Origin: a virus
Taxonomy: Duplodnaviria > Heunggongvirae > Uroviricota > Caudoviricetes
DNA length: 64,000 nt
Direction: 5' to 3' (one strand)
Virus record (IMG/VR): IMGVR_UViG_3300045988_155182
A model generated the notes under the pieces. That model was not told the origin of the DNA. It ran no database searches and saw nothing but the letters and a program-made list of their open reading frames with translations. The translations under genes and the position numbers were made by a program. This document shows positions 1 to 61,953 of this stretch, piece by piece; position 1 is the stretch's first letter, and each line of letters begins with the position of its first letter.

Positions 1-87
1 AGTGACTCTTCGCCGCAATCAAAACCGTTTAGATCATAATCTTTCTCTCCAGAGAAAATCTCTATCGTTGTATTGCTCACGAGTAAA

Positions 88-357
88 CTACTCCATGCTT
101 TTCAGACGATCAGCAGCTCGTTTCAGCTTGTCGTTCGGTGCCGGAGGATTGCTTATAGCGTCCATAACCAGATTCCAGGATTCTTCATTCAGAACTAGTC
201 TACGGTGTTGCTCTATAACTTTCACGGCACGTTCAGATGCACTGCTAACCATAAACTGAGTAATGCTCTGGTTAGACATTGCGGCAGCTTCCTCGATGAT
301 GCTTTTATCGTCATCGGTTAATCTCAAATCGATGCGCTGCTTTTTTAGTGCTGACAT
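88..357 (-). CDS. RHH antitoxin of the DUF1778/TacA type; the cognate GNAT toxin would lie downstream, off the left edge
   Basis: Protein MSALKKQRIDLRLTDDDKSIIEEAAAMSNQSITQF... fits the TacA-like antitoxin pattern; ATG at 355-357 preceded by a GGAGGA RBS; the ORF-track start at 396 is an upstream extension. Confidence 0.6.
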   Translation of the reverse strand: MSALKKQRIDLRLTDDDKSIIEEAAAMSNQSITQFMVSSASERAVKVIEQHRRLVLNEESWNLVMDAISNPPAPNDKLKRAADRLKSME

Positions 358-675
358 GTATTCCTCCTGATGGCCGTGATGTAGGAAGGCCATCAATCTC
401 CTCTGTTCAAACTGAGTTTTCGACTCAAAAATTACTTTAAAAGGCTATAGCCCATTACGTGTGCATTATCAAATTGTGTACGGCATAACACCGTACTTGT
501 AATATAGAGGTCATTGTTACTTTTTTCAACAGACAAATACAAGCTATGATTGCCAATTGTTAATCACAACCTACCATTTAACCTTTACACCGCAGCCGTA
601 GGCATTTAGGCTATATCACATATAAGAAAACAAGTTGTTTCAGACGATAATTATATACGCAAAGGGAACTCTCCA

Positions 676-1344
676 ATGACCAAGATCTTTGTGGTTGGCG
701 GCACAAAGGGCGGGCCTGGCAAATCCACCGTTGCCCAGCAAATTGCCGTTTGCCTGAAAGTCAAAAAGAAGAAGAAGGTTTATATTACCGATATAGATAT
801 TCAGCGCACGACAACGAGCTGGTGTGAAGACCGTCGACAGAACGAAGACCTTGAGCTGATTCCTTTTGCATACGTTCAGGATGACATCATTAAGCACCTA
901 AAATCGCTTCAGGGTAGAGCTGAGTTTGTAGTGGTAGATGCTGGTGGCTTCGACTCCGAAATTCAGCGACAAGCGATGCTGATGGCCGACGTTATCATTA
1001 TCCCGCTTCGTCCTAAGCGTCGTGATTTGAAATCTCTGCGTGATATCGATCCTATTATCGACAATGTTCGTAATGTAAACGATAAAGTGAAGGTCCGCGC
1101 GGTCATGAACCAGTGTCCGGCTTTGCCATCACAAGTGTCTCGCATTCTGGCGGCTAAAGAGATTGTTGAGACGTTTGGCATCGAGTCTGCGCCAGTCAAT
1201 CTATATAACCGCAACGTCTATGATGATGCGGAAGAGTCTGGTCGTTCTATCTTTGAAATGACCGGTAGCGAGCGCGACAAAAAGGCGGAAGCCGAGTTTG
1301 AAGAATTTGTAGATTATCTGTTGAGTCTGGAGGAAAAAGAATAA
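676..1344 (+). CDS. parA: ParA/Soj-family partition ATPase (small type Ib)
   Basis: Deviant Walker A KGGPGKST near the N-terminus (VVGGTKGGPGKSTVAQ); 222 aa; followed by a translationally coupled small gene. Confidence 0.85.
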   Translation: MTKIFVVGGTKGGPGKSTVAQQIAVCLKVKKKKKVYITDIDIQRTTTSWCEDRRQNEDLELIPFAYVQDDIIKHLKSLQGRAEFVVVDAGGFDSEIQRQAMLMADVIIIPLRPKRRDLKSLRDIDPIIDNVRNVNDKVKVRAVMNQCPALPSQVSRILAAKEIVETFGIESAPVNLYNRNVYDDAEESGRSIFEMTGSERDKKAEAEFEEFVDYLLSLEEKE

Positions 1345-1703
1345 TGTCCATGAAAATGGGTGACCTAGCAAAGCGCAAAGAGCCTGATGCACCGGCTAAG
1401 AACACAACTCCTTTGCGCCAACCAGTCAGACCACAGGGACGCCCGACTCGTGGCAAAGAGAAAATTAAAAGCCGCACAATGTCACTGGAGGACGAATACT
1501 TCGAACTGCTGGAGATGATGAAGTTCATCCCTCGCTTCGAGAAGTTCACTCGTTCTGACGTGATTCGTGCTGCTATTTTCCATCTTGCGGAGAAGACACC
1601 GCAGGAAATCGAGGACATCGTGAAACTTAACGAGGCGATCACCGCTGCCGATGTCACGATGCGTACCGATGAAATCAAACGCGAGTTGATGAAGAAAGGT
1701 TAA
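1344..1703 (+). CDS. Small ParG-like RHH DNA-binding partner of ParA (putative centromere-binding protein)
   Basis: Start overlaps the parA stop (TAATG); basic disordered N-terminus and an RHH-like C-terminal segment (FTRSDVIRAAIFHLAEK). Confidence 0.45.
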   Translation: MSMKMGDLAKRKEPDAPAKNTTPLRQPVRPQGRPTRGKEKIKSRTMSLEDEYFELLEMMKFIPRFEKFTRSDVIRAAIFHLAEKTPQEIEDIVKLNEAITAADVTMRTDEIKRELMKKG

Positions 1704-1710
1704 TTTTATT

Positions 1711-1735
1711 GAGGTGCTGCTTGGCACCTCTTTCT
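1711..1735 (+). terminator. Hairpin terminator after the par operon
   Basis: gaggtgctgc/ttggcacctc inverted repeat followed by tttct. Confidence 0.45.
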
Positions 1736-1747
1736 ATAGGTTCCCTA

Positions 1748-2467
1748 ATGCTCTACAAATATATTGGAAGTGAAGATTCGCAAAAAGTGTTACGTAACCT
1801 CAAACGGTTTGTAGAGGACGGCACTATCTCTGCTAGCGCACCTTCTTCATTCAACGACCCATCAGAGTTCAAAGTTTCGATAACGATGGGAGGTACAGAA
1901 GTGGAGCGCCGGAAACACTTTGAAGACAATGGATGTAAGGATTTTTCCTTTGAAGACTGGGATGCTGTAGCTCCTGAAGCTGCAAAATCGTTGGCTGTGG
2001 ATTTGCGGAAAGAATCATTAGGGGCTTTTGGTGTGGTGTGCTTGTCACCAAACGAAGATAACATCTTGATGTGGTCACATTACTCAGTGTCGCATAAAGG
2101 TTTCTGCATAGGCTTTGATGATGATTTTGTTACCTCTATTGAGGGGTATCACAGCTTTGATAATGTGAAATATATACCTTCTGTTCCCGTGTTCGATGAA
2201 GTTACAGATGAGTTTAAGGTACTTTTTGATAAGCTCTTTTTCTACAAGCACGAATGCTGGAAATATGAGGAAGAACAAAGGGTTATTACTAAAAAAATAG
2301 GCGCTCAGGCATTTGATAAGAAATATATTAGAGAGATCATTCTTGGACATAACGTTTCTCCTGAAGTAGAAGAATATGCCCGGACACAGCTAGACACGAG
2401 CATCGAGGTTTACAAAATGAGTACACCTGATGATGGTTATCTTCTTGTCAAAGAAAAGCTGAAGTAG
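1748..2467 (+). CDS. Hypothetical protein, possibly DUF2971-like; AT-rich cargo
   Basis: ATG at 1748 lies after the terminator hairpin (track start 1709 is TTG inside the hairpin); motif LMWSHYSVSHKGFCIGF recalls the DUF2971 signature; visibly lower GC than neighbours. Confidence 0.4.
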   Translation: MLYKYIGSEDSQKVLRNLKRFVEDGTISASAPSSFNDPSEFKVSITMGGTEVERRKHFEDNGCKDFSFEDWDAVAPEAAKSLAVDLRKESLGAFGVVCLSPNEDNILMWSHYSVSHKGFCIGFDDDFVTSIEGYHSFDNVKYIPSVPVFDEVTDEFKVLFDKLFFYKHECWKYEEEQRVITKKIGAQAFDKKYIREIILGHNVSPEVEEYARTQLDTSIEVYKMSTPDDGYLLVKEKLK

Positions 2468-2533
2468 CTCCAGACTTTCCTCAAATGATTATGTTGGGCG
2501 CTTTTCTTATTGAACTGGTTAGTGAGGCTAATA

Positions 2534-3706
2534 ATGGATTTGTTCTCAACCAAAATAGCAAAAAACAAGCTGCACGAATCTTTTAAACAGATTTATCAAG
2601 ATAATACATATGCTCCAGTAAGAGAAGTGATACAGTCGTGGGGGCGTGGGTTACTGGAGCGTAGCGGTGAGCAGACTAAATTCGTTAAAGAGTTTCAGAC
2701 AACCTTCAATTCCGCCTTATGGGAATTGTATCTGAACGAAATGTTTATTCGTCTCGATTATTCTGTCGACTACACAAAAGACAGTCCCGATTTCTGTGTT
2801 ACTACACCGTCAGGCTACCAGTTTAACGTCGAAGCTGTGATATCAGATCGGCCACATAATCCACCTGCAGGTGTTCTTTTTAGCGAATCAAAATTCAAAC
2901 ATCAATCAACGCTAAAATTAATCGGAAAAATCAAAGACAAACATGATCTTTTTACAGGAGTTAATGGCAAAAAATTCCCGTACTCTACGATGTCTCATGT
3001 AGTTAATAAGCCGTTTGTTCTGGCGCTTGCACCCTTTGACTCCGATTTATCATTGTCTCAAAATAACACAATCATCAATCGAGTGTTGTTTGGCATTGAG
3101 GAACCTACCACCAGAAATTTGGTGACTGGCAGCCAAACTAAAGTTACCTCAATCAAAAAGAATGAAGACGTTGAAATTCCATTAGGTATATTTACTAACG
3201 ACTCATATAAAGAAATAAGTGCGGTTATTTTCTCCACCACCGGCACTTTTGGAAAAGCCGTGGTTCAAAGCGGTATCGGTAGATATGTAAGGTCAACACG
3301 ATATCGAGCCATTGATGTGAATGATTTTATCGCCAATGAAGGGATGAAAAACGAGGGAAAGCACACACAAAGGATAGGACCTGATCATTTCATCACTACA
3401 TATCGGCATTTTTTAAATAACGAAGTCACTGGTGCGGATATTGTAGTTTGTCATTCCACTGCTCATGAAGAGACGCACTTTGACGGCCTTCATATTTACT
3501 ACAATCCTTTTGCGACAGTGCCACTGGACAGAAATATTTTCTTCCCCCCAGAGATAACTCATAATTTTTACGATATGGAAAAAGAACAGTCTGTTCAGAA
3601 TCATCCTGATGGAGCGCTGGTATCTAGACAGGTTTTTGAACCAACTAGAGCACATTTTAGGTATATCATGAAACATTGGTTTCCAGGCTTTCTAAAAGAT
3701 GTTTAA
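2534..3706 (+). CDS. Hypothetical protein, AT-rich cargo, no recognised domain
   Basis: ORF track 2510..3706 begins with TTG; ATG at 2534 is preceded by GAGG; 390 aa; same strand and close spacing to the upstream gene. Confidence 0.4.
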   Translation: MDLFSTKIAKNKLHESFKQIYQDNTYAPVREVIQSWGRGLLERSGEQTKFVKEFQTTFNSALWELYLNEMFIRLDYSVDYTKDSPDFCVTTPSGYQFNVEAVISDRPHNPPAGVLFSESKFKHQSTLKLIGKIKDKHDLFTGVNGKKFPYSTMSHVVNKPFVLALAPFDSDLSLSQNNTIINRVLFGIEEPTTRNLVTGSQTKVTSIKKNEDVEIPLGIFTNDSYKEISAVIFSTTGTFGKAVVQSGIGRYVRSTRYRAIDVNDFIANEGMKNEGKHTQRIGPDHFITTYRHFLNNEVTGADIVVCHSTAHEETHFDGLHIYYNPFATVPLDRNIFFPPEITHNFYDMEKEQSVQNHPDGALVSRQVFEPTRAHFRYIMKHWFPGFLKDV

Positions 3707-4687: not shown

Positions 4688-6028
4688 ATGACCGAACTTT
4701 GCCATACAGGACGCGGGCTGTCCGAAGAGTTTGATGAAGATTTTCAGAACAGATTGACGGCCTATTTTTGTCGTGATCACGAGTTTCTTACTCGTGCTGG
4801 AGATCTGGTTGTACCTAGCCAATTTGCCAATGCGGCCAATGCCATATTGGTTAATATGGTTTCGGGCTATTACCGTATGTACAAGAGCGCGCCCTCTTCA
4901 TCTGCGATTCTGGATATGCTTAAGCGTGCGAAACGCGATAAGACTATCCGTGAGGAACTATTCGCCGATGTTGTTGCTGCGTTTAAGCGCATCCTTGCAG
5001 AAAAATTGTCTGATACCTCGTACATGGTTGACCAGGTATCAACCTTCGCAAAAAGCGTAGCGTTTGATGATGCTCTGATTAAGGCTGCTGAACTGAAAGA
5101 GAAGGGCGACTTTCAGGGGGCGATGGCAATCATGGCCAAGGTTCAGCAGATTGGATCGAACGAAGCGACCGGAATCTATGACTACTACACCTCCGCAAGT
5201 GAGCGATTGAAAGCGCGTGAATATGAGGCTTCAGAGGAGTATGTGCCAAACAGCATTACAACTGGACTCCCTCTGCTCGATAGGTTGCTGTACCAAAAAG
5301 GCTGGGCGAAGCGTGAAATGGTGCTCTTCATGGGGTTCGCTAAATCCGGTAAATCGACCGCAATGGGTGAGTTTTCCATAAACGCAACGCTTGCTGGCTA
5401 CAATGTTCTGTATCTCTCGCTGGAGGTTCACACCAACATTTTGTCCGACCGCTTTGATGCAAGATTGTCGGAGACGGAAATGTCCAAGCTGGTGGAACGG
5501 CGCGATGAAGTTCATCGTAAGTTGGCAGAGTTGGGAGCCACTAAGGGGATTGGTAGTTTGTGGGTTGTTGAGCGTCCGTCAGGAAGTATGTCACCTGCAG
5601 ATCTGGACCGTATGCTTAACAGTATGAAAGCCAATGGCATGGTGCCTGACATGGTTGTTGTCGACTACGCAGATTTGATGCGTGCCAGTTATGACCTTCG
5701 TGATGATCGCGCCAATATTCGTAGTATCTACACCGATTTACGTGCTCTTTATGACAAGCATAACGTTGCTGGGATCACGGCATCGCAGACAAACCGTGAA
5801 GGTGGCGCGTCAGAAGTTGCCACAATGATGCACGCCGCCGATAACATCGAAAAAGTACGTATTGCTGACCTGGTAATAACGATCAACAAAACCGAAGAAG
5901 AAGAAGCGAAAGGAGAGGCTCGTCTCTACTTTGCTGGTTCACGTAACCAGCAGGGTGGGATCAGCATTCGCGTTAAACAAAACCTCGAACAAATGCGTTT
6001 CATTGAGCGAATCTTAGACGTTACCTAA
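4688..6028 (+). CDS. Replicative DNA helicase, DnaB/gp41 family
   Basis: Walker A GFAKSGKST, RecA-fold C-terminal domain with VVVDYADLM; conserved AGGAAAGCACATG start context. Confidence 0.8.
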   Translation: MTELCHTGRGLSEEFDEDFQNRLTAYFCRDHEFLTRAGDLVVPSQFANAANAILVNMVSGYYRMYKSAPSSSAILDMLKRAKRDKTIREELFADVVAAFKRILAEKLSDTSYMVDQVSTFAKSVAFDDALIKAAELKEKGDFQGAMAIMAKVQQIGSNEATGIYDYYTSASERLKAREYEASEEYVPNSITTGLPLLDRLLYQKGWAKREMVLFMGFAKSGKSTAMGEFSINATLAGYNVLYLSLEVHTNILSDRFDARLSETEMSKLVERRDEVHRKLAELGATKGIGSLWVVERPSGSMSPADLDRMLNSMKANGMVPDMVVVDYADLMRASYDLRDDRANIRSIYTDLRALYDKHNVAGITASQTNREGGASEVATMMHAADNIEKVRIADLVITINKTEEEEAKGEARLYFAGSRNQQGGISIRVKQNLEQMRFIERILDVT

Positions 6029-6034
6029 AAAATA

Positions 6035-6058
6035 AGCGTGGAGAACACCTCCACGCTT
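6035..6058 (+). terminator. Hairpin after the helicase gene (weak T-tract)
   Basis: agcgtggag aacacc tccacgct. Confidence 0.35.
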
Positions 6059-6109
6059 GATTCATTTGTGAAACAACTTTTCTTTTGCCAAACCACAAAA
6101 GAAAAACAC

Positions 6110-7288
6110 ATGAGCCTTTATGTTATATCAACATTTAGGTTGGTCACAATATTGCCTGTTAAAAGTGGAATTATCGTGAGCGAGCTGAAAGAGCTAATTG
6201 CCGAATTAGATTTTGAACAATGGTTGGATACTGAAGGTATCGTTTATCGACGTGGAGGCGTGAGTGCTCGCGGTCGTGAAGTGAATATCAAGGAATGTCC
6301 GGTATGCGGCAGCTCCAACTGGAAGGTATATTTCAATCTGACCAGTGGCGTCGGCAAATGCTTTGCTGGTGATCATCCCGAAGAGATTCAGTTCAATAAG
6401 CTGGTCTTCCTCAAGCACTACAGCGGCAAATCACGACGACAGTTCGAGGAATATGTGCAGAACGCCCTTCTTTCCCAGGGGTGGGCACCAAAGAAAGAAG
6501 AGATAGTGCTTGCAAGCACAGTCGAGTTAGAGGGACCACTTGCACTCCCTCGTCATTACGAACTTCCTATAGATGGCCGTCTTCCAGACTATCTGGTTGA
6601 ACGAAACATATCGCCTGAAATGGCAAAGTATTTTGACCTACGATACTGCGTCGAAGGTAAGCACGCTTATGTAGATCCGTATACAGATCAGGTTAAAGGA
6701 CAGATATTCGATATGCGAATACTGATACCGGTTTACGATCTGGATGGGGTAATGAAGACATTTCAGGGACGAGACATTACCGGTACAGCAGAACGCCGCT
6801 ACCTCTTTCCTATGCAGCTTCCAGCTTCAGGTAAATTTCTCTACAACGGCCATAATGCAGTCGGCAAACAGACTGTAGTTGTCTGTGAGGGTGCGTTCGA
6901 TGTTATGGGGGTCAAACGAGCTATTTTCGACGAAGAAACATTACGTGATTACGTGGAGCCAATAGGAACGTTCGGGATGCATCTATCTGGCAACACCACT
7001 CAGGATGCAGAAGATCAGTTGGGCGCGTTCCTGACGCTCAAAGCGCGTGGATTACGTAATGTGATCATGATGTGGGATAGTGAAAAGCAAGCTATACGTA
7101 ATACGATGGCCGCAGCCAGGCGACTGACCAGTATTGGTCTTAATGTCAAAGTGGCGTGTTTGGGCGAGGAAGGACTCGACCCGGGCGATGCAACGCCAGA
7201 GCAAATCATCAAAGCCTATTATCGGGCAAAACCGTATACCAAGCAGTTGGAGTTACAAAGCAAGGTTTTGGGCATTAAGGCTCTATGA
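6110..7288 (+). CDS. DNA primase (zinc-ribbon plus TOPRIM)
   Basis: CPVCGSSNW...CFAGDH zinc-binding motif and a TOPRIM-like VVVCEGAFDVMG; start set at the ATG at 6110 that carries the conserved aaaaacacATG context (track start 6038 is GTG inside the upstream hairpin). Confidence 0.75.
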   Translation: MSLYVISTFRLVTILPVKSGIIVSELKELIAELDFEQWLDTEGIVYRRGGVSARGREVNIKECPVCGSSNWKVYFNLTSGVGKCFAGDHPEEIQFNKLVFLKHYSGKSRRQFEEYVQNALLSQGWAPKKEEIVLASTVELEGPLALPRHYELPIDGRLPDYLVERNISPEMAKYFDLRYCVEGKHAYVDPYTDQVKGQIFDMRILIPVYDLDGVMKTFQGRDITGTAERRYLFPMQLPASGKFLYNGHNAVGKQTVVVCEGAFDVMGVKRAIFDEETLRDYVEPIGTFGMHLSGNTTQDAEDQLGAFLTLKARGLRNVIMMWDSEKQAIRNTMAAARRLTSIGLNVKVACLGEEGLDPGDATPEQIIKAYYRAKPYTKQLELQSKVLGIKAL

Positions 7289-8198: not shown

Positions 8199-8681
8199 AT
8201 GGCGGTAGTTGTGAAAGCTGATTTGTCAAAAATCCCTTCTATTTCAGGAAATAACGGTTATTCACTTCGTTGTGAGGAAGTAAAGATAAACGGTGAGTCG
8301 GCATATTGCAGCTACTCCGTATGCCAGCACACCATTCTTGCCTTCAAAGAAAACCGTCTTCCTCGAACGTCTTTCCAGTCGTGCGCAACCGCTATTAAAG
8401 CAGGCAAATGCAAGGCGTTAAAAATGATGGTTGAAGAGATTCGTAAAGGAGAATCTCTGTATTTCGAAGATATGACCGCACTCATTAAGGAGGTTGAAGA
8501 ACGGAATAAACAAGCCAGAACTATAAAACGAAAACGTGACAGTGTAACGATTAATAGCATGGTTAAGAAGAGCGCCACATCACAAACAGCGATCACTGAC
8601 GTGTATGCGGCGTTGATTGAAGAAACAACAAAAGAAACACATGAGCAAATCGATCAACATATGGAGGCAAAACAACAATGA
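8199..8681 (+). CDS. Hypothetical protein
   Basis: 160 aa ORF; its stop overlaps the start of the ligase gene. Confidence 0.35.
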   Translation: MAVVVKADLSKIPSISGNNGYSLRCEEVKINGESAYCSYSVCQHTILAFKENRLPRTSFQSCATAIKAGKCKALKMMVEEIRKGESLYFEDMTALIKEVEERNKQARTIKRKRDSVTINSMVKKSATSQTAITDVYAALIEETTKETHEQIDQHMEAKQQ

Positions 8682-51556: not shown

Positions 51557-51565
51557 GGCGGTTGT

Positions 51566-52273: not shown

Positions 52274-52431
52274 TGCTTGAGAGATTCCGGCTTGTGATCG
52301 TCATTGCTCTTCTGGTGATGGCGGTGTTGGTGGATTTTACGGGAAAGATGATGTCTGTCATTTCTGATGGCGTCCTCATTGGTCTGGCGATCTACTTCGC
52401 TTATCCGCTAGTCCGTAAAGCAACGTGTTAA
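52273..52431 (+). CDS. Small membrane protein (52 aa, below the ORF-track cutoff)
   Basis: ATG overlaps the upstream stop (TAATG); MLERFRLVIVIALLVMAVLV...; terminator follows. Confidence 0.25.
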   Translation: MLERFRLVIVIALLVMAVLVDFTGKMMSVISDGVLIGLAIYFAYPLVRKATC

Positions 52432-52433
52432 TG

Positions 52434-52464
52434 ACAAGGGCCATTTGGCCCTTGTGTTTCGTTG
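52434..52464 (+). terminator. Hairpin terminator
   Basis: acaagggcc attt ggcccttgt followed by gtttcgtt. Confidence 0.5.
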
Positions 52465-52570
52465 ACCGAAATAGAGAGTTTGCACCTTTACGTTTAGCTT
52501 GCTCCCCTTTTATGCCACATCACAATAAAGCCAATAAGAAAACAACTTGTTTAAGCATTAGGAAAAACAC

Positions 52571-53140
52571 ATGTGCAAGAAATGCAAAGCAATAGCTGAT
52601 GAACAAAACGCCTTATTCGAAGAAATGGATGCTAATGAACTGGTCAAAATGTTAGCCATTCTTCGAGGAATAGAAGACGTTTCCATATTTGAGAGAGTGG
52701 TTACAGCACTTAATTTTGAGTCCACCTTTGAAGAGCCAACTCAGGTTGTAGCTTTAGCACATCATTTCGGTGTTCATTATCTTGCTGAAAAAGAGCGCGC
52801 TGATAAGTTGCAGGCGACTTTGGATATGGTGAGCGAGACTCAACGAACTGATGACACTAACAAGAGTGAGGCGATTATTGCCAGCAAAGATCGTGAAATT
52901 GCTGGGCTTAAATCCTCTCTAACGATGTTGATGTCTGCGTTCAATCTTATGTCTTCTCAGGCGGGTTATAAAATGCCATCACTAAACAGCGATGATCCGA
53001 TGGCCGTTCGTCAGCTTTTGGGAGCAATGGCCGACCAACTCGACGACACAAAGAGTCGGCTTGAAGACATGATGCGTGAGTTAAGCCATCGACATAACCT
53101 CGCAACACAGCCACACAAAGCCTTTCAAAGCTCTAATTGA
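52571..53140 (+). CDS. Hypothetical protein
   Basis: 189 aa; AAACAACTTGTTTAA motif and conserved start context upstream. Confidence 0.35.
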   Translation: MCKKCKAIADEQNALFEEMDANELVKMLAILRGIEDVSIFERVVTALNFESTFEEPTQVVALAHHFGVHYLAEKERADKLQATLDMVSETQRTDDTNKSEAIIASKDREIAGLKSSLTMLMSAFNLMSSQAGYKMPSLNSDDPMAVRQLLGAMADQLDDTKSRLEDMMRELSHRHNLATQPHKAFQSSN

Positions 53141-53195
53141 TCTGATATGGCCGCATGATCGGCCATATTGTGTTGATAAAAAACAAGGATGAAAA

Positions 53196-53477
53196 ATGGC
53201 ATACGGTACAGGGATTTACAACAATAAAGGAATTAACGTTACTGGCTTCCTTACTCCTATTTTTTTTCTTGATCGATTTACTGCGTCATCAGGCTCTAAG
53301 ACGTACTCCAATCCGCCACCGGGTAAATCGCTACATGCCGTGTGGTCATTGATGCCTCTTAACAACGACAACTACATTAATTTACCTGTTCCAACAGTTA
53401 CTATTAATGGAAATACGGTTAGTTGGTCAAATTTATATACGGGGCTTGGTTCTTACATATACACATACTGGGGATAA
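53196..53477 (+). CDS. Hypothetical protein (AT-rich cargo)
   Basis: 93 aa, N/T/G/Y-rich. Confidence 0.3.
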   Translation: MAYGTGIYNNKGINVTGFLTPIFFLDRFTASSGSKTYSNPPPGKSLHAVWSLMPLNNDNYINLPVPTVTINGNTVSWSNLYTGLGSYIYTYWG

Positions 53478-53479
53478 TT

Positions 53480-54094
53480 ATGTTCGGGATGTCAATTACT
53501 CAATCAGATGGAAGTTTGTGGATGAGTCCAGAATTTACTCCGCAAAATCTGATTAATAAAGGGACAATGTCTACATCTAAAGGTTCTGTTTTTCAAACAT
53601 CAATCCCATCAAACAAATCATGCTTTTTCTTCATAAAAAGCAGTAATAAGGCGAACATGATGTTTATTCATGAGCATAGTAACGGATACAATGCTCTCAG
53701 ATTGCATCAGGTAAATGGTAGCCCCGGAACAATAACAGTTTATGCTTTTTCTGATATGGTGTTACCACATTCTGGCTATGGCATTGCCATGTATAACAGC
53801 GCAGGCGCAATGGTGTATCACGGTGAGATGATGCCCCTTGATGCGAAACTTATCACTATTTCTGACCCTCAATTTACAATAGATATGGGGTATCCATGTG
53901 CGGTAATGCCTGCTATGGTTGGGGTATATAACTATAGACGAACCGATTACGACAGACCTGTCTATGTAACAATGACAGGTGCAACTGGAAACCAAGTATA
54001 TAACGGTCAATGGTATTCCGGTAATGTCACATGGGATATTAAGAAGATTTATACAAACAAAATTCTGGTGATAAATACCTCCAAGTATGATTAG
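53480..54094 (+). CDS. Hypothetical protein (AT-rich cargo)
   Basis: ATG at 53480 just after the upstream stop; 204 aa. Confidence 0.35.
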   Translation: MFGMSITQSDGSLWMSPEFTPQNLINKGTMSTSKGSVFQTSIPSNKSCFFFIKSSNKANMMFIHEHSNGYNALRLHQVNGSPGTITVYAFSDMVLPHSGYGIAMYNSAGAMVYHGEMMPLDAKLITISDPQFTIDMGYPCAVMPAMVGVYNYRRTDYDRPVYVTMTGATGNQVYNGQWYSGNVTWDIKKIYTNKILVINTSKYD

Positions 54095-54197
54095 CCAATG
54101 CCTTTATTTGAAGGATTGCCTGTTTATTTCTATTTAGTACCTTTTCATTTTTGAAATAATTGCACCATTAAACAAATCACTTCTTAATGGTGCAATT

Positions 54198-55883
54198 ATG
54201 AATACAGCCCTTTCCATCATCGACGATGCCAACTCAAACACTGCTATCGACTATCGGAAGGAAATGAACGTCATCCACGAAATTGTGGCCGAGTGCGAGA
54301 AAGAGATCGCCTTCATGTATCAGGTTCACGACTTCGTTTATGGCGACGAACGCCACAACATGATTAATCGCCTGCTGAGACTAAACCATCGACCAGATGA
54401 AGATCGCTCGCGTTTAAATCGAGGTTGGTTGGATAAAGTCGATCTGGAATGGGTGAAACAGAATATTTGGGCCGAGTACTGGAGGAAGGTCACGGACATG
54501 ACTAACGTTTTGCTGATCATGCCAGCTTCCCGTCGAGATGAGTGGCGCGAGCAGTTTATAGAGGGCAAACAGGAAGTCATCAAAACTGACAGAACCGGCT
54601 ACCAGATGAAGGTTAAAGAGTTCGTTGGTGTACCGGAGTTCAAAGCAGAAACGGTCATACCCACGATGCTTAATTTGCTGAATGACAGGCACAAATATCT
54701 CTCTGAGCGCGTGTATGGCTTGTTTAAGGCGCTGAGTCCTGCGCACAAGACAAATAAGACAAACGGTTTCAGCGAGCGTCTGATAATCGCTGACTGCATT
54801 TCTGATTTCTGGCGGGACAGCGTTAGCGTGAACTATCGCAAAGAGGACTACATCGACGATCTGCGTGTCTTGCTTCATTTCTTCGCGCACAAAGAATTTA
54901 TTACCATCAACCGCACTGCTGAGGTGCTATCAGCTGCGTATCGAGCAAACGACTGCCAGACCGGTGACTGGATGAACGTCGATGGAAATCTGATGCGCGT
55001 GAAGATGTTCAAGAACGGCAACGTTCACTTTGAAATACATCCTGACGTGGCCTGGAAGTTGAATGAGGTGCTGGCTTACAGTATGCCTGCTGCAATCCCC
55101 GCGCCATGCCGAACTGCGCCAAAAACACGGGCACCAAAGCAGTTCGGGTTAATCCAGAAGACGATCTCCGTGCCGGTTCGCACTGCGCTTCGTGACGGGC
55201 GATTGAGCAAAGACAAAGGCGTATGGTACTTCTCTGATTCAGCTCTCCAGAAGTCGCAGGTGGAAGAGCTTGAGCGCACACTGAGCTTCATTGGCGGCGT
55301 GCAGGAGAAAAAGCACTGGCAGTTCCCGTATGACATCGGCCATACGCTAAATACGATTGTGGCTACCGGTTTAATACCGGATACAAAATCACACCAGTTC
55401 TACCCTACCCCACGCTTGATTGCTGAGTACGTTGCCAGAGCCACTGAATTGAAGCCTGGTGAGAAGCTGCTGGAGCCTCAAGCCGGACGTGGGGATCTTC
55501 TGGCCTATATTAACGCCGATCTGGAAGATGTTACCTGCATAGAAATCGCACCTCTCTTCGCTGATATCCTGCGTGGAAAAGGGTATACGAACACGATTTG
55601 CTGCGACTTCATAAAGTGGTCTGAGGACAACGCAGGTTATCAGTTCGACAAAATCGTTATGAACCCGCCGTACTCGCTTGGTCGTCATAGAGAGCACACG
55701 CTGGCTGCGCTGGGGCATCTGAAAGTCGGCGGGCGTCTTGTAGCAGTATTGCCGGGCACTGCGCCAATACTGGACTGGATGACGATGGATAATTACGTTT
55801 ATGCCAGAGGGAAGTCGTTTACCAACGAGTTTGAAGACACAGGGATCACAGTCAGCGTATACGTTTTCAAACGCGTTAAATGA
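54198..55883 (+). CDS. Putative SAM-dependent N6-adenine DNA methyltransferase with a large N-terminal domain
   Basis: C-terminal motif I-like LEPQAGRGDL and catalytic NPPYS; 561 aa. Confidence 0.55.
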   Translation: MNTALSIIDDANSNTAIDYRKEMNVIHEIVAECEKEIAFMYQVHDFVYGDERHNMINRLLRLNHRPDEDRSRLNRGWLDKVDLEWVKQNIWAEYWRKVTDMTNVLLIMPASRRDEWREQFIEGKQEVIKTDRTGYQMKVKEFVGVPEFKAETVIPTMLNLLNDRHKYLSERVYGLFKALSPAHKTNKTNGFSERLIIADCISDFWRDSVSVNYRKEDYIDDLRVLLHFFAHKEFITINRTAEVLSAAYRANDCQTGDWMNVDGNLMRVKMFKNGNVHFEIHPDVAWKLNEVLAYSMPAAIPAPCRTAPKTRAPKQFGLIQKTISVPVRTALRDGRLSKDKGVWYFSDSALQKSQVEELERTLSFIGGVQEKKHWQFPYDIGHTLNTIVATGLIPDTKSHQFYPTPRLIAEYVARATELKPGEKLLEPQAGRGDLLAYINADLEDVTCIEIAPLFADILRGKGYTNTICCDFIKWSEDNAGYQFDKIVMNPPYSLGRHREHTLAALGHLKVGGRLVAVLPGTAPILDWMTMDNYVYARGKSFTNEFEDTGITVSVYVFKRVK

Positions 55884-55944
55884 TAGGTAAATACTTACTT
55901 AATTTGTGTAAGAATGTAATAACTAAACGATAAGAGAAAAACAC

Positions 55945-56649
55945 ATGAACAACCTCCAGTTAGAGCATTTTAACGTCACAGGCCATTCTGATTTTCCTTT
56001 CAAGTTTACATTGAAAGGTTATGCAGAGGATGCGGTAGGCCAGATCATTATTGATAAAGGCATCGTTAAGTTTGAGGGGGATTTTGATGAATCCGCGAAA
56101 ACATTCATAGACTTCGTTGCCAAACGTTGGAGCGAGCAATGGAAAGACCTGGAAAAGCGCGCTAGTGAGTTTGATCGGTTCATGGATGCAATGAATACAG
56201 CAAAAGAGGCTCTTGCTGCCGGGACTCCGTTAGATCTGGAGTCACTTTTCAACGGCGAAGTGGCCTCTGCGATGTTCGCCACCATGTTCGCGGGTGAGTT
56301 CGTCCGCAGCGGTGCCAAAAACTACCTTGAGCTGGATTACAACGTCCCTGCAATTGGCGATTTCGTCGTTACCATCCAACGCAAAGAAGGTAAGACGCCA
56401 GGTGAACGCGTCGCAGAGCTTGAGGCCGTTGTGGATCAGCGTAACGGAGAGTGTGACCGTTTGATCAACGAGCTTCATGCACTTCGGGAAGAAAGAATAT
56501 GCGCGGGTAGCAATACACGTAATGCAGCGGATATCTACTTCCAGTTAGTTGAGGAATGCCAGATTCCACCAGGCGGCTCTCTTGTCGATTACGTCAGACA
56601 TTTAATGACGGAAGTTAACTCCAGCCATAAAGATGGTGAGGTGCGCTGA
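55945..56649 (+). CDS. Hypothetical protein
   Basis: 234 aa; conserved aaaaacacATG start. Confidence 0.35.
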   Translation: MNNLQLEHFNVTGHSDFPFKFTLKGYAEDAVGQIIIDKGIVKFEGDFDESAKTFIDFVAKRWSEQWKDLEKRASEFDRFMDAMNTAKEALAAGTPLDLESLFNGEVASAMFATMFAGEFVRSGAKNYLELDYNVPAIGDFVVTIQRKEGKTPGERVAELEAVVDQRNGECDRLINELHALREERICAGSNTRNAADIYFQLVEECQIPPGGSLVDYVRHLMTEVNSSHKDGEVR

Positions 56650-57029
56650 TGTTTGGCATTGACGCACAGCGTGTAGCCGCTTTTGCAAAAAGCCCTCTTG
56701 ATAATCCCTTGTCTCGTAGTGAGCAAATGGAGCTGGCAAGGCTTTTTCTTCACATTCAAAAACAGGCAGACATTTTCAATAACATGCCTAATCAACCTAT
56801 TCTGGATGGTCACATCCAGATGGTCATTAACAGTCATGAGAAAGGCTGGGCTGCAATCGTCCCCTGCACAATTACATACAAGTTGGCGAAAGAGGTTCAA
56901 GAGTTTCGAAAAGCCAGTGTCGAATCGGAGTCTACCAAAGCCGCAATAAACACTCTTATTCGCATGGGGTTCACATGGACCGGTGGAGCCTACTGGCAAG
57001 CACCTCAACCCATTTTATCCGGCAATTAG
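56649..57029 (+). CDS. Hypothetical protein
   Basis: 126 aa; coupled start. Confidence 0.3.
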   Translation: MFGIDAQRVAAFAKSPLDNPLSRSEQMELARLFLHIQKQADIFNNMPNQPILDGHIQMVINSHEKGWAAIVPCTITYKLAKEVQEFRKASVESESTKAAINTLIRMGFTWTGGAYWQAPQPILSGN

Positions 57030-57167
57030 GCGCTACAAATCCTTCTGCATGAATAAATAAAGGCCATAACTTATGGCCTTAAATAAATTGTTTTCTACCT
57101 TTTCTTATTTGTGAAAATAAACCAGCACTTGGTAGTGCTTATGTAACAGCAAAGAAGAGAAAAACAC

Positions 57168-57668
57168 ATGAGTAACAAAATCGAAAATCCCGTAGTTCTC
57201 ATTCACAAGCGCGAGAACCACGACTCCTATGCGGTGGCGATCACCAATGGGAGTCACGATTTTTACGATGGCCTGCTAATGGCCTCAGTGTCGCCTGATG
57301 AGGCAGATAACTCTTTTGCCGTCTTCGCTATGGTTGGTTACTACATGGCTGCCGAAATTGAGAAGTTGCTGGCGCAAAGAGACGCATTAGCGGCGGAGAA
57401 TGCAGCCCTGAAAGAATCTGAGCGAGCATTCGATGCGATGTGTGCCGAGGAACACGGAGATAATTGGGTTAGCGAATTGACGGAGACTCCAGCCACCGAT
57501 GCTTTTCTGGCTGAAGTACGTGCGCAGGGCGTGGATATGGCTCGTAACGCGATGATTGATTTTGTTGATGGTGAAGTTGGGCCAAACAAGAACGTTCCGG
57601 GGCTGATTAGAGGCGCAGAGATATGCGTAAGTATTGCTGAACAGCTTCGTAAAGGAGTCATCCAGTGA
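57168..57668 (+). CDS. Hypothetical protein
   Basis: 166 aa; conserved aaaaacacATG start. Confidence 0.35.
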   Translation: MSNKIENPVVLIHKRENHDSYAVAITNGSHDFYDGLLMASVSPDEADNSFAVFAMVGYYMAAEIEKLLAQRDALAAENAALKESERAFDAMCAEEHGDNWVSELTETPATDAFLAEVRAQGVDMARNAMIDFVDGEVGPNKNVPGLIRGAEICVSIAEQLRKGVIQ

Positions 57669-58066
57669 GCAAGATTGACTATCAGGCACTGCGTGAGGCG
57701 GCAGAGCGTGCAATTCCGGCAATGGAACGCCTGTTAATGTTGCCAGTTGATGATGATCTGATATGCGAACAGGAACTTAAAGATAGCGGTGTTGATATTG
57801 ATGCCCTCAACGCCTTCAAATTTCTGGCCGGACCAGAAACCGTGCTGGCACTACTGGATGAGATCAACGCATTAGAGGAAACGCGTATCAACGATGTTTG
57901 CCGTATTGCGGAACTAACAAAACAACTGGAGTTGGCAAAATCAAAACTCAACGAGCAGCGTGAGTATTACGAGGGCGTTATCTCGGATGGAAGTAAGCGC
58001 ATAGCCGCTCTTCTTCGCAAGGACAATCTTGCCAGCGCCACGAACATTGAAGGTGAAAGAAAATGA
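57665..58066 (+). CDS. Hypothetical protein
   Basis: GTG start overlapping the upstream stop (GTGA); 133 aa. Confidence 0.3.
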
Positions 58067-58386
58067 CCACATCGCACTCTGCTATTACCCAAGAAAAAGT
58101 CTTCAACATACTCGAACGACTAGAGACGCTCGCTACGGAGGAGGATATATCCCCGGAGAAACTGGTTGAGTTCAGCCGTGTGATATTGCGTCGCAAGAAC
58201 GATATGGAGCGGCTGACATCTGGCGCTCCATCCTTATCAGTCAGGCGAACACTTTGTTGCAGCTTCTGCAACAAATCCCAGTACGCCGTCAAAAAGTTAA
58301 TTGCTGGGGACGCCGTTTTCATCTGCGACGAGTGTGTGGATGTGTGCAACAGAATTATCCGGGGAGAGAAAGAGGGATCAGCATGA
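58063..58386 (+). CDS. Small protein with a C-terminal ClpX-type zinc-binding domain
   Basis: C-terminal 45 aa [39 protein letters not shown] are nearly colinear with the E. coli ClpX N-terminal ZBD ([36 protein letters not shown]). Confidence 0.6.
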
Positions 58387-58913
58387 AATTTTCCAAATTT
58401 TCTGAGTTGGTGAATCGTATTTTGTCCAACAACCACAGCCATCGTCGCGATATGGATGTAACGATCGTTGTTCATTCGCCTGGTCGCATCGGTTCAACAC
58501 CATCAGTTGAGGTTCAGTCAATTCAGGCGGGTTTTGATTGGGATGCCGGGCAAGTGATGATTTTTCCAGCACAGCCACTGACCACGCTAACACCAGAGCA
58601 GGTTGCTGATATCACTGATAGTGTGCGCAAAGGTCAGTCTTGGCACGCGTATCAGGAATACAAGAAGCATAAAGAGCAGTTGGAAAAATTGTCGATGGAG
58701 TTGGAAGGCGCTAAACAGCGGGAAAAAGATCTGTTTATGGAAAATGTTCGACTTAAGTCAGGTATAGCCGGTCTGATACACCTCGGTATTCGATATGCGG
58801 ATGTTGAGGTCATGAAAATTGCTGGAGATGCCCAGCTTTCTACTCCATGCACTGACAGCATCATAAACAGCATTGCAGCAGGCATTTTCACCAAAGAGGG
58901 GGCAGCACGATGA
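58383..58913 (+). CDS. Hypothetical protein
   Basis: ATG overlapping the upstream stop (ATGA); the track ORF 58254..58913 extends upstream in the same frame. Confidence 0.3.
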
Positions 58914-59095
58914 GAACACTAGAGGTTCGCGCTGAAGACGTAATCCCTGGTGATGTGCTCATAACATCTAAAGGTCAACAATGTGCGGTTAAATCTTTTT
59001 GGATGGAAAATGACAAAGTGACTCTGTTCGGTACGGATGGTTCCGAAACTGATTATGACTACGACGAATTGCTTGTTGTTGAGAGAGCTGCCTAA
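58910..59095 (+). CDS. Hypothetical small protein
   Basis: 61 aa, coupled. Confidence 0.3.
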   Translation: MRTLEVRAEDVIPGDVLITSKGQQCAVKSFWMENDKVTLFGTDGSETDYDYDELLVVERAA

Positions 59096-59748
59096 TGACC
59101 ACCGTTAACAATAAGAAATGCTACCCAAGCGAGAAATATCTTAATGAGCTGATCACCAACATTGAGTTTGCTGCAAGAGCACCAGTTGAAGTCGTGAGAG
59201 CGATTGCAGCAGAGCTACAGAAGCACCGTAAGGCCTATGCCAATACAGCCGCATCTAAGGATGGTTGGATAAGCTGTAGTGAGCGAATGCCTGTAATTGG
59301 CGAGCTAAATTGGAGAACTAGTTTTCCTTTACTGGTTACGTGTGAGATCGGCGTTATACCTGCTTATTACGGCTTTGTGAGCGTTAATGGTGATAGGCAT
59401 TATGGCTTTATGGAGAGTCTTAAATACGGAGACGCTAACGGCAACCATCCTCAAACTAATGAATATGGTCTGATTAGCAATGTCACACACTGGATGTCAC
59501 TACCAGAACGCCGCAGGAGTCGAACAGTGAATAATGCAGAGTTATTTCAGAAAATATCGGCTCTCGCGACTGAATGCCACGCTATAGCATCTGAGCTTGA
59601 TGTTGGCGATGAACGAACCGAGATGTTCGAAATATACAGTGTGCTGCGCAATCTCTGTCGGCGTGGCTACGCCACTCAAGTAGGGCGAATGACTAACCCA
59701 CTACTCTCATCCTGTGATGAGGATGACTCGGATGAGGATGACGAATGA
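59095..59748 (+). CDS. Hypothetical protein with acidic C-terminal tail
   Basis: 217 aa ending DEDDSDEDDE. Confidence 0.35.
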   Translation: MTTVNNKKCYPSEKYLNELITNIEFAARAPVEVVRAIAAELQKHRKAYANTAASKDGWISCSERMPVIGELNWRTSFPLLVTCEIGVIPAYYGFVSVNGDRHYGFMESLKYGDANGNHPQTNEYGLISNVTHWMSLPERRRSRTVNNAELFQKISALATECHAIASELDVGDERTEMFEIYSVLRNLCRRGYATQVGRMTNPLLSSCDEDDSDEDDE

Positions 59749-60128
59749 TGCATAAATCAGTAGCCGGTGAGTTTCAGAAGGAAGTCGATAATACTACCGT
59801 TCTATTGGACGATATTTTAAGCATTCTCGCGCTGCTTGAGGCTGGCGATTGGTCAGAACATTGCACTAAAACAGAGCTAGGCGGTCGGCTTGAAAGAGAG
59901 ATTACACGACTGATTAGCGATGCCCAAAATGATTTGTCACCTGAGCATCTCCCCTGCGATGTAGTTCTTGTGCCAGGGATGAGGATACACGAAGGCGTCA
60001 GAACGAAAACATTATTAACCGCATTACAGAGAAGAGCCGAACTAAGCTCGCGGATAAAGTTGATGCCATCCAAAATATTTGATGTCGTCAAATTTACGCC
60101 ATCGCAACATACTGAGAGAGATAAATGA
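59745..60128 (+). CDS. Hypothetical protein
   Basis: 127 aa, coupled. Confidence 0.3.
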   Translation: MMHKSVAGEFQKEVDNTTVLLDDILSILALLEAGDWSEHCTKTELGGRLEREITRLISDAQNDLSPEHLPCDVVLVPGMRIHEGVRTKTLLTALQRRAELSSRIKLMPSKIFDVVKFTPSQHTERDK

Positions 60129-60751
60129 GCACGGTAGCGAAAGATCTCACAGAAGATATTCTCAATGAAATTATTGCTGGTGCAAATACCTCGCTTGAGC
60201 AACTTCTTGCGTTAGCACTGATAGCCGAACGTCGAGACAGAAATCGTTTTTATGAGCGATTACCAGGGAAGCGACCAGATAGATCGGATGAAGAAGGTTG
60301 CGATATAGACTACATGGAGCCTTCAGAGATTTATCAACTTGGTAAAGATGACGGCTGGAACGCTTATCACGATGCTGTGATGAAGTTGGATGAAAAAGTT
60401 AAACCTCTTTCTCGACCGGTAGATCACGGTTTCCGCGATAACTGCGAATGCTCTAGTTGCCAGACCACGGCCCGTATTTGTTCCGAATTGACAGATAAGT
60501 CCAGCCTAATCTACGAAGTTAATGTAGGCGGTAATACATGGGTCGAATGCACAAGAGCTGCATACGTAAGAGCAAAAGACAAGGGTGAATTAACCAGAGT
60601 TGTTGCCCATCACCCAAATAATGAGCTTAAAGATCACCAGATTAGAGAACTGGTGAACGAGTTGCGGGATATTGCGGTTCAGTACCACGGAACGCAGCAA
60701 TTGCGGGAGAAAATTGCCAGAGCAGTGAACAACTCAGTCCGTAAAAAATAA
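60125..60751 (+). CDS. Hypothetical protein
   Basis: 208 aa; last gene of the long plus-strand block. Confidence 0.35.
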   Translation: MSTVAKDLTEDILNEIIAGANTSLEQLLALALIAERRDRNRFYERLPGKRPDRSDEEGCDIDYMEPSEIYQLGKDDGWNAYHDAVMKLDEKVKPLSRPVDHGFRDNCECSSCQTTARICSELTDKSSLIYEVNVGGNTWVECTRAAYVRAKDKGELTRVVAHHPNNELKDHQIRELVNELRDIAVQYHGTQQLREKIARAVNNSVRKK

Positions 60752-60964
60752 GCAATAGTACGATAAAGAGGCCCCATGCTCTTGATGGGGCCTGTAGCAA
60801 CTAGCGTTATGGACGCTGGTTTACGTACTCAATGATCGCTTTGATAATCGCGAACATCGGCGGCACGATTTTGAACAGTAAGTTAACCATAACAGGCCTC
60901 ACTTAGTTTTATCGCGCCTAGCTGCAAATACCTTTGGGCTTGCCTTTGCAGTTGCAATATCTGT

Positions 60965-61153
60965 AGTCGCCAGATACTTACGGCACGATTTCGAGTTAAG
61001 GTAAGGTTTTAGAGTCACCAAAAACCTGGACTTAAATCTTCTTTGAGAACAACGATGTTTAGTAAATGGTCATTATTACCTGGTATGACCACTCAACCTT
61101 TCTTGATGAATCCAGTACATTCGGTTAATCTTAATTCAGTCGCCAGATACTTA
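60965..61153. repeat. Pair of 16-bp direct repeats (AGTCGCCAGATACTTA) 173 bp apart in the ORF-free junction region
   Basis: Exact copies at 60965-60980 and 61138-61153; the second is followed by two tandem hairpin plus T-tract terminators (61161-61190, 61192-61222). Confidence 0.5.
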
Positions 61154-61516
61154 TGGCTCAGGAACAGAGCCGCAAACTCTGTTTCCTTTTAAAAAGCCCA
61201 GCCTAGTCAACTGGGCTTTTTAATGTCTATTTTTAACCCAACATACCCTCAATACTGCAACATCAGTGTCTTGCGAATTAAGATAGTGTGAATAGATTTT
61301 TCATGCAAGTGCATAAGCCTGTGGATAACTCAGGAAGGAAAAAGTGACTTCTGCGCACTTTAGACCGGACAAGGCGTTCGAAAAAGTCAATGGGAAGAAA
61401 AAATTTGTTAAAAATAACGTTTGTTTGAATTGTATATATTTATGCCTTTCAATAGTTAGCATCTTATTAACATCTTTTTTAAGAGATAGAGTTCAAAAAT
61501 ATATAGCTTCAATATA

Positions 61517-61536
61517 TACTGTATGTGTATACAGTA
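61517..61536 (+). promoter_or_regulatory. LexA (SOS) box upstream of the UmuD'-like gene
   Basis: tactgtatgtgtatacagta = CTGT-N8-ACAG palindrome, 16 bp upstream of the ATG, with AAGAGG RBS between. Confidence 0.65.
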
Positions 61537-61552
61537 TTAAGAGGCGAGTATT

Positions 61553-61942
61553 ATGGGCTTCCCTTCTCCTGCGGCGGATTATGCTGAGAGCCGTATTTCT
61601 CTTGATCAGCAGATAATTAGACATCCTTCAGCGACCTACTTCATGAGGGCAGCTGATAGTCATCATCGTGAGGGAATATTACAGGGTGCATTGCTGGTGG
61701 TCGATTCCTCACTTACCCCGGTTGATGGTTCTCTGCTTGTATGCGCTCTGGATGGGGAATATCGCGTAAAAAGATACCGGAAGTACCCACGTCAGCATCT
61801 GGAGGATTTAAGAACCGGTAAGAAGGAAGCATTGCCAAAGGATGACGATGGATGCACGGGCAGCAATGCCGTGTTTGGTGTGATCACTCACATTATCAAC
61901 GACGCAAGAAGTGGCGAGTTTGATGATTGTCCCGTGATGTAG
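61553..61942 (+). CDS. UmuD'-like protein (S24 peptidase fold, HumD-type, encoded already in the processed form)
   Basis: Begins MGFPSPAADYAE, which corresponds to UmuD immediately after its Cys-Gly self-cleavage site; conserved Ser (ADSHH) and Lys (GEYRVKRYR) positions present; no umuC follows. Confidence 0.8.
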   Translation: MGFPSPAADYAESRISLDQQIIRHPSATYFMRAADSHHREGILQGALLVVDSSLTPVDGSLLVCALDGEYRVKRYRKYPRQHLEDLRTGKKEALPKDDDGCTGSNAVFGVITHIINDARSGEFDDCPVM

Positions 61943-61953
61943 GAGAACTGATT

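Follow-up and report, generated by a model that had tools for sequence, protein, structure and literature searches.

The window, by which we mean the whole 64 kb stretch of viral DNA that was analysed, is coded mostly on the + strand, and its cumulative GC skew climbs steadily along its length, in keeping with the almost unidirectional coding described in a first-pass annotation. Its genes and other features are collected in Table 1. When this inventory was checked by Pfam, PHROG, ARAGORN and repeat searches, all of the functions listed earlier were recovered, with a single exception. The RHH fold that had been assigned to the ParA partner found no Pfam match, no PDB sequence match and no support in PHROGs; a single-sequence AlphaFold model of the protein consists of helices only, at low confidence (pLDDT 63.8), and offers no clear alternative fold. 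A search for centromere-like repeats near parA produced nothing convincing.

Table 1. Features of the 64 kb window, in order of position.
Feature	Position	Strand	Basis or remark
GNAT acetyltransferase toxin gene, 3' end	1-80	-	cut by window start; annotation of 99.6% identical pHXH-2
DUF1778 antitoxin gene	88-357	-	pHXH-2 annotation
ParA-type Walker ATPase	676-1344	+	matches MipZ, AAA_31, CbiA
ParA partner, 119 aa	1344-1703	+	sole match phrog_5111 (unknown function)
DUF2971 / PDC-S31 candidate defence gene	1709-2467	+	PADLOC E-value 4e-38
PD-T7-5 defence gene	2510-3706	+	PADLOC E-value 2e-139
DnaB-like helicase	4688-6028	+	
DnaG-like primase	6038-7288	+	phrog_47
ATP-dependent DNA ligase	8678-10000	+	two further genes between primase and ligase
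tRNA-Asn(GTT), tRNA-Thr(TGT), tRNA-Ser(TGA)	11427-11890	+	ARAGORN; Rfam finds 2/3
Glutaredoxin (Grx)	13151-13396	+	
Tyrosine recombinase	13607-14710	+	
HTH regulator	14705-15091	-	annotation of relatives
CobT-like VWA protein	15654-17762	+	
AAA_5 ATPase	17858-19093	+	
DnaE-type Pol III alpha	19274-22792	+	
cspG-like cold-shock gene with complete cspA-type 5'UTR thermoregulator	23071-23489	-	Rfam RF01766, 187.6 bits; pHXH-2 annotation
gp32-like SSB	25293-26321	+	
5'-3' exonuclease/FEN	26331-27326	+	
RecA/UvsX-like recombinase	27595-28668	+	
Plasmid replicon, repA flanked by iterons	31400-33620	-	Rep_3 match, repeat search
Downstream iterons of repA	31462-31892		repeat search
repA (Rep_3)	31896-32951	-	matches Rep3_N and Rep3_C
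Two diverged origin-like copies upstream of repA	32985-33300 and 33360-33680		predicted
SbcD-like	34594-35679	+	
SbcC/Rad50-like	35909-37825	+	one further gene, then RuvC-like
RuvC-like resolvase	38568-39137	+	phrog_159
NrdA	39211-41526	+	
NrdB	41633-42775	+	
MazG-like pyrophosphatase	42853-43722	+	
ThyA	43867-44997	+	aligns to solved ThyA structures with two insertions
HAD phosphatase-like protein	between ThyA and DHFR in dNTP-supply block 39211-47577	+	
DHFR	45409-45885	+	100% identical to WP_000781810.1, annotated DfrA51
P-loop kinase-like ATPase	45885-46529	+	weak AAA_28/AAA_17 matches
DnaQ-like 3'-5' exonuclease	47020-47577	+	
Dam-type N6-adenine methyltransferase	48729-49322	+	
RNase HI	50272-50913	+	
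TerB-domain protein	51848-52273	+	
DUF4942 methyltransferase-like protein	54198-55883	+	
humD (UmuD'-like S24 peptidase)	61553-61942	+	
Terminator-like hairpin between humD and apbC	61954-61974		plausible, predicted
apbC/mrp	61980-63080	-	plasmid-borne cargo
metG	63238 onward	+	cut by window end; 677 aa in relatives

The homologues of the GNAT/DUF1778 pair in phage Cyrano have been named KacT and its antitoxin (PMC9928086). The defence islet (1709-3706) is variable, and another gene occupies the same site in relatives. Calling the P-loop kinase-like ATPase beside the DHFR gene a dNMP kinase is a guess. Over the whole window, Rfam returned nothing beyond the tRNAs and the cspA thermoregulator.

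The iteron-type RepA origin that had been proposed is upheld by the Rep_3 match of repA and by the repeats that surround it: the iteron core CTAYAGTGGWT occurs 23 times in the window (2.74 expected), with 19 of the occurrences inside 31462-33494. Each of the two origin-like copies contains 21-bp-spaced iterons, GATC-rich repeats and a DnaA box (one of these is TTATCCACA, at 33226-33234). The roles given to both copies, like those of the recombinase and the ParA partner, are inferred. A Rep_3 initiator with iterons, in DNA whose near-identical records are typed IncFIB, is also the kind of replication module that belongs to the SSU5 supergroup, which is of IncFIB type and siphovirus-like (defined in PMC7969092).

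Sequence searches against plasmid and phage records, which the first-pass annotation had put forward as a check, identify the window as part of a known type of circular plasmid with relatives in Cyrano and SSU5. Along its full 64 kb the window is collinear with IncFIB-typed circular plasmids of E. coli and E. albertii, 107-112 kb in size, to which it is 99.1-99.7% identical. Positions 1-25000 match the circular plasmid pHXH-2 (NZ_MH257954.1) in one collinear piece at 99.6% identity, 25001-50000 likewise match a circular plasmid at 99.7%, and 45001-64000 match the circular plasmid pAVS0223-B (NZ_CP124417.1) at 99.1%; E. albertii plas1 (NZ_CP099899.1) is collinear with the entire window. These two E. 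coli plasmids, that of E. coli strain DFL.5 (NZ_CP104844.1) and plas1 have gene order, IncFIB typing and humD-apbC-metG in common with the window. No single one of the four matches all three window thirds at 100% coverage; small variable islets account for the differences, among them the PD-T7-5/DUF2971 site and the gene at 12069-12977.

The element had previously been given a boundary at 61950, and the mrp (apbC)-metG pair beyond it had been taken for chromosome, which left the element either integrated or part of a chimeric contig. Near-identical plasmid DNA, however, continues through apbC-metG to base 64000 and past it. Complete circular plasmids and phage records show the humD-apbC-metG arrangement at 98-100% identity. 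A 5.5 kb probe that spans it with its flanks is covered to at least 80% by 149 E. coli records, and the phages Cyrano, CMS-2020a and PhiR41_1 carry the arrangement as well. In circular relatives, the apbC-metG pair, with metG at full length, has humD on one side and, on the other, more plasmid genes that continue round to the module for terminase, portal, capsid and tail. Chromosomal copies, in contrast, match the window across apbC and metG only, at ~90% identity, and this homology begins at the apbC stop codon and finishes at the metG stop codon. A promoter/terminator scan of 60.6-63.4 kb stayed at chance level overall, the hairpin between humD and apbC excepted. On these alignments the mrp-metG pair at the right end is plasmid cargo, not chromosome, and with that the choice between integration and chimera falls away.

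Insertion of the element into the chromosome beside a resident mrp-metG, as prophage or genomic island, might be argued from the tyrosine recombinase and from the fact that each of the 5,426 E. coli genomes has apbC-metG as a conserved chromosomal pair. It is made very improbable by the higher identity of the window's pair to plasmid copies than to E. coli chromosomes and by what flanks that pair: the chromosomal neighbours yehE and DUF4132 are missing from the plasmid context, where humD and phage-plasmid genes stand instead. Moreover, the CobT-AAA-DnaE core (probed with 15654-22792) occurs at 263 places in 245 of the 5,426 complete E. coli genomes, and 263 of the 263 are on plasmids. That an assembly error joined plasmid to chromosomal mrp-metG has a negligible probability; it can point only to the presence of housekeeping-type genes, and the same junction lies within one unbroken alignment in independent circular plasmids and phage records from several countries and hosts.

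Compared with E. coli K-12, the metG of the window has 94.2% DNA identity and its protein 669/677 (99%); the values for apbC are ~84% and 344/365 (94%). The plasmid genes are paralogues of the chromosomal ones, and the excess of protein over DNA identity indicates that MetG and ApbC are under strong purifying selection. To look for a donor of the pair, 185,579 species representatives, with one genome for each species, were scanned and the best 80 matching loci compared; no donor emerged from these. Among the matches listed, those to metG are best in Escherichia (93-94% DNA identity). The identity of apbC to all genomes compared is 80-84%, and for the intergenic region Citrobacter comes closest, at ~72%. 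None of these 80 loci is a close donor of apbC or of the intergenic promoter region, and metG looks Escherichia-like, which suggests a mosaic origin of the block.

It is conceivable, but we consider it doubtful, that humD-apbC-metG is a selected cargo cassette, not a passive passenger. A selected cassette could make the charging of methionyl-tRNA, or the delivery of Fe-S, vary with the copy number of the phage-plasmid; this in turn could give E. coli antibiotic tolerance, as reported for Shigella sonnei pWPMR2, or it could aid lytic growth. By the description available through citing work (PMC12452169, bioRxiv 10.1101/2025.09.12.675607), pWPMR2 is an SSU5-group phage-plasmid with an extra metG and a reported effect on antimicrobial survival.

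That no virion genes had been seen in the first 62 kb agrees with the near-identical records, on whose matching stretches none are annotated, and the expectation that the element extends leftwards is borne out by collinear relatives: their virion module is situated ~2 kb to the left of position 1, and E. albertii plas1 likewise has it beside that point. In pAVS0223-B the remaining arc of ~45 kb, which runs from metG round to the toxin-antitoxin pair of the window start, bears the genes for tail fibre, tape measure, major capsid, portal and large terminase. Because the window itself holds neither virion module nor circular junction, it is from near-identical relatives that we infer its extrachromosomal state and phage competence. 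A defective derivative, with the same backbone but with its virion module partly or wholly lost and therefore behaving as a plasmid only, would also fit a window that leaves the structural genes out of view, and some E. coli records carrying the CobT-AAA-DnaE core are only 72-76 kb long, perhaps through deletion. Nevertheless, of the relatives that reach 99% identity or more, the majority measure 107-112 kb and have a complete structural module, and the defective alternative is accordingly unlikely.

With high confidence, then, we regard the window as an arc, ~60%, of a circular temperate siphovirus-type phage-plasmid of ~107-112 kb, belonging to the E. coli/Shigella branch of the SSU5 supergroup near pHXH-2, pAVS0223-B and Cyrano/pLF82. 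Besides a self-contained gene set for replication, recombination and dNTP supply, the window carries as cargo the tRNAs, cspG, humD, apbC, metG, the PD-T7-5 defence gene and the methyltransferases. In lysogeny, such an element would replicate at low copy from its RepA/iteron origin, with ParA partitioning it, the toxin-antitoxin pair stabilising it and the tyrosine recombinase serving to resolve dimers and not to integrate. Upon induction, lytic replication would be the work of the element's own DnaE, DnaQ, DnaB, primase, gp32, ligase, RNase H and FEN, with help from the RecA-like, SbcCD-like and RuvC-like proteins together with NrdAB, Grx, ThyA and DHFR; the virion module, in the ~45 kb beyond the window, would then package the DNA. 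The apbC-metG block would be a captured and still functional copy of the chromosomal pair that travels with the element.

The element type is already known, and the finding is real but ordinary. It adds nothing new on how such elements work; the metG of phage-plasmids and their dfrA51-type DHFR have both been described before. There is a lesson for annotation: where housekeeping-type genes (apbC, metG, cspG, tRNAs) border a mobile element of this family, they are no sign of a chromosome junction. SSU5-like phage-plasmids are nevertheless clinically important. They are present in 245 of 5,426 complete E. coli genomes. They carry a DHFR identical to the RefSeq protein named DfrA51, and expression of phage SSU5 dfrA51 in E. 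coli raised the MICs of trimethoprim (PMC12217456). They may also bear blaCTX-M-15, and their extra metG has been linked, in the citing accounts referred to above, to antimicrobial survival in Shigella; all of these points have been published.

The first-pass annotation likened the element to large enterobacterial phage-plasmids with a maintenance backbone and their own replisome and dNTP genes, and matches to SSU5-type relatives (measured as alignment coverage and identity) confirm this. Membership of the P1-like group was considered and rejected: matches to P1, P7 and D6 are confined to the tRNA block (2% of the query) and to humD, a P1-type backbone is missing, and replicon, replisome and virion type all differ. 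The tRNA-Asn/Thr/Ser block is 94-95% identical in P7 and D6, and humD ~85% identical in DNA in all three. Salmonella phage SSU5 and plasmid pHCM2, which typify the supergroup, share backbone architecture and replication genes with the window, SSU5 at 53% coverage and 80.8% identity; the sequence search returned no SSU5 match to the apbC-metG region. Both type members are much more diverged from the window than is Escherichia phage Cyrano (= pLF82, OV696614). Phage CMS-2020a reaches 82% coverage at 96.8% identity, and Cyrano 85% at 97.5% over positions 1-25000, the unshared ~15% of that stretch being variable cargo. Cyrano has the same genes for the S24 peptidase, 'MinD' (= ApbC) and MetRS as the window; it exists as a plasmid (~5.5 copies per cell), gives rise to siphovirus particles and is inducible by ciprofloxacin (PMC9928086).

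In megablast searches of PLSDB with the window in parts, each part aligned without a break to a complete circular plasmid: 1-25000 to pHXH-2 (NZ_MH257954.1, 111,915 bp; 100% coverage, 99.6% identity), 25001-50000 to NZ_CP104844.1 (100%, 99.7%) and 45001-64000 to pAVS0223-B (NZ_CP124417.1, 108,564 bp; 100%, 99.1%). In the E. albertii plasmid NZ_CP099899.1, positions 8200-70943 are collinear with the window over its full length. Matching plasmid records are typed as IncFIB and non-mobilizable. There are phage matches as well: Escherichia phage Cyrano (85% coverage, 97.5% identity), phage CMS-2020a (82%, 96.8%), PhiR41_1 and, more distantly, Salmonella phage SSU5 (53%, 80.8%). On pAVS0223-B, the ~45 kb without a counterpart in the window carry the virion genes (tail fibre, tail assembly proteins, tape measure, major capsid, portal, large terminase) along with genes for a DEAD-box helicase and two ParB-like proteins. 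Because this virion arc bridges metG and the DUF1778/GNAT toxin-antitoxin pair at the opposite end, the window is, judged by its alignments, about 60% of a phage-plasmid of the SSU5 supergroup (described in Pfeifer et al. 2021, PMC7969092, and Nair et al. 2025, bioRxiv 10.1101/2025.09.12.675607), and the first-pass annotation was correct in proposing a phage-plasmid. Every part is at least 99.1% matched in existing records and there is therefore no novel insertion; the element is already known, and everything essential about it (the SSU5 supergroup, Cyrano/pLF82, dfrA51, phage-plasmid-borne metG) has been published. PMC12452169 credits Tam et al. 2024 with an effect of phage-plasmid-borne metG on antimicrobial survival in S. 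sonnei, and Nair et al. 2025 mention pWPMR2.

The same annotation took mrp (apbC) and metG for chromosomal genes abutting an element that ended at 61950, so that the element would be integrated or the contig chimeric. Four results contradict this. pAVS0223-B aligns with 57000-64000 as a single piece (99.4%); on that plasmid, humD lies on one side of apbC and a complete metG (677 aa), and more plasmid genes lie on the other. A 5.5 kb probe comprising the apbC-metG block plus flanking DNA finds 149 E. coli records that cover 80% or more of it; in E. coli chromosomes the match (~90%) is confined to the stretch between the stop codons of apbC and metG. Compared with E. coli K-12, metG is 94.2% identical as DNA (669 of 677 residues as protein) and apbC ~84% (344 of 365 residues), the intergenic region reaching only ~60%; by this comparison the window's copies are diverged paralogues under purifying selection rather than the resident genes. 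Finally, yehE and DUF4132, the neighbours of chromosomal apbC-metG, are absent from the plasmid context. Position 61950 is not a boundary. Integration into the chromosome is effectively excluded: a core probe (CobT-like VWA protein, AAA_5 ATPase and DnaE; 15654-22792) matches at 263 places in 245 of 5,426 complete E. coli genomes, none of them chromosomal. The apbC-metG block is also borne by the Cyrano, CMS-2020a and PhiR41_1 phage records, and an assembly chimera is likewise effectively excluded.

The cassette (61980-64000 in the window; 16981-20272 of locus L001) looks mosaic in its sequence. Plasmid metG has 94% DNA identity to E. coli and apbC 80-84% to each of the genomes compared; for the intergenic region, Citrobacter comes nearest among the matches listed (~72%). 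No donor appears among the matches listed from a scan of species-representative genomes. Both proteins are strongly conserved. CP170191.1, deposited as 'Enterobacter hormaechei strain B56 chromosome', has apbC-metG identity values that equal, in each segment aligned, those of a chromosome like that of E. coli K-12; that record may be mislabelled or contaminated.

The remainder of the original observation stands essentially as made. Coding is mostly on the plus strand, with cumulative GC skew climbing steadily, and nearly all the functions named have Pfam and PHROG support: ParA, DnaB-like helicase, primase, ATP-dependent ligase, glutaredoxin, tyrosine recombinase, CobT-like protein with AAA_5 ATPase, DnaE, gp32-like SSB, FEN, RecA-like recombinase, Rep_3 RepA, SbcD- and SbcC-like proteins, RuvC-like resolvase (phrog_159), NrdA, NrdB, ThyA, DHFR, DnaQ-like exonuclease, RNase HI, ApbC and the N-terminal 254 residues of MetG. 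Only the ribbon-helix-helix fold assigned to the ParA partner lacks support. The CobT-like/AAA_5 pair lies immediately upstream of dnaE and is conserved family-wide. Two E. coli plasmids, NZ_CP050499.1 (76,269 bp) and NZ_CP024264.1 (72,060 bp), carry the core at ~95% identity; typical members are longer by 30-35 kb, and these two may be deletion derivatives without phage functions.

Positions of features in the window
Feature	Position	Strand	Remark
DUF1778/GNAT toxin-antitoxin pair	1-357		
Variable islet	1709-3706		directly after partition genes
tRNA-Asn(GTT), tRNA-Thr(TGT), tRNA-Ser(TGA)	11427-11890		ARAGORN
302-aa ORF	12069-12977	-	~36% GC; adjoins tRNA block
CobT-like VWA protein, AAA_5 (CobS/MoxR-like) ATPase	15654-19093		
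cspG-like cold-shock gene	23071-23489	-	cspA 5'UTR thermoregulator: Rfam RF01766, 187.6 bits
Main iteron cluster	31462-33494		19 of 23 iterons; both sides of repA
Iteron field downstream of repA	31462-31892		
Origin-like copies upstream of repA	32985-33300; 33360-33680		period ~375-381 bp
ThyA	43867-44997		376 aa
DHFR	45409-45885		100% identical to WP_000781810.1
humD	61553-61942	+	
apbC (mrp)	61980-63080	-	
metG	from 63238	+	cut by window end

An iteron-type RepA origin is borne out by the CTAYAGTGGWT core, which turns up 23 times in the window, where 2.74 occurrences would be expected; some copies are spaced at 21 bp, and GATC-rich repeats and a perfect DnaA box accompany the cluster at repA. 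The two tandem origin-like copies have diverged; both contain iterons at 21 bp intervals and GATC-rich repeats, along with a DnaA box or near-box. With the downstream iteron field, this arrangement is reminiscent of P1 oriR/incA.

From these parts we infer a life cycle. In lysogeny, RepA and the iterons, with host DnaA, would keep the plasmid at low copy (its relative Cyrano is present at about 5.5 copies per cell; PMC9928086), ParA and its partner would segregate it, the toxin-antitoxin pair would penalize its loss and the tyrosine recombinase would most likely resolve multimers. After induction (by ciprofloxacin in the case of Cyrano; PMC9928086), an element-encoded replisome (DnaE, DnaQ-like exonuclease, DnaB-like helicase, primase, gp32-like SSB, ligase, RNase HI, FEN), a recombination set (RecA-, SbcCD- and RuvC-like proteins) and a dNTP set (NrdAB, Grx, ThyA, DHFR, MazG-like protein, P-loop kinase-like ATPase) would drive lytic replication, after which the DNA would be packaged by the virion module, which lies beyond the window.

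The variable islet encodes a 398-aa protein with a PADLOC match to PD-T7-5 (E = 2e-139) and a DUF2971 protein with a match to the PADLOC candidate PDC-S31 (4e-38); close relatives have another gene at this site, annotated in pAVS0223-B as a GIY-YIG protein. The 302-aa ORF, replaced in the E. albertii relative by a Gp49-family gene, has no Pfam or PADLOC match, its sole match being phrog_35492 (unknown function). The cspG-like gene, which keeps a full-length cspA 5'UTR thermoregulator, is a further host-type gene that was captured along with its regulatory leader. Solved ThyA structures lack two insertions present in the window's ThyA (approximately residues 128-165 and 213-270), which retains the active-site Cys-His motif. 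The RefSeq protein identical to DHFR carries the annotation trimethoprim-resistant DfrA51; trimethoprim MICs rose when the SSU5 homologue was expressed in E. coli (PMC12217456). The tRNA-Asn/Thr/Ser block (11423-11913) is 94-95% identical in the P1-like phage-plasmids P7 and D6, and humD of P1, P7 and D6 has ~85% identity to 61507-61942; these likenesses suggest gene exchange between P1-like and SSU5-like phage-plasmids.
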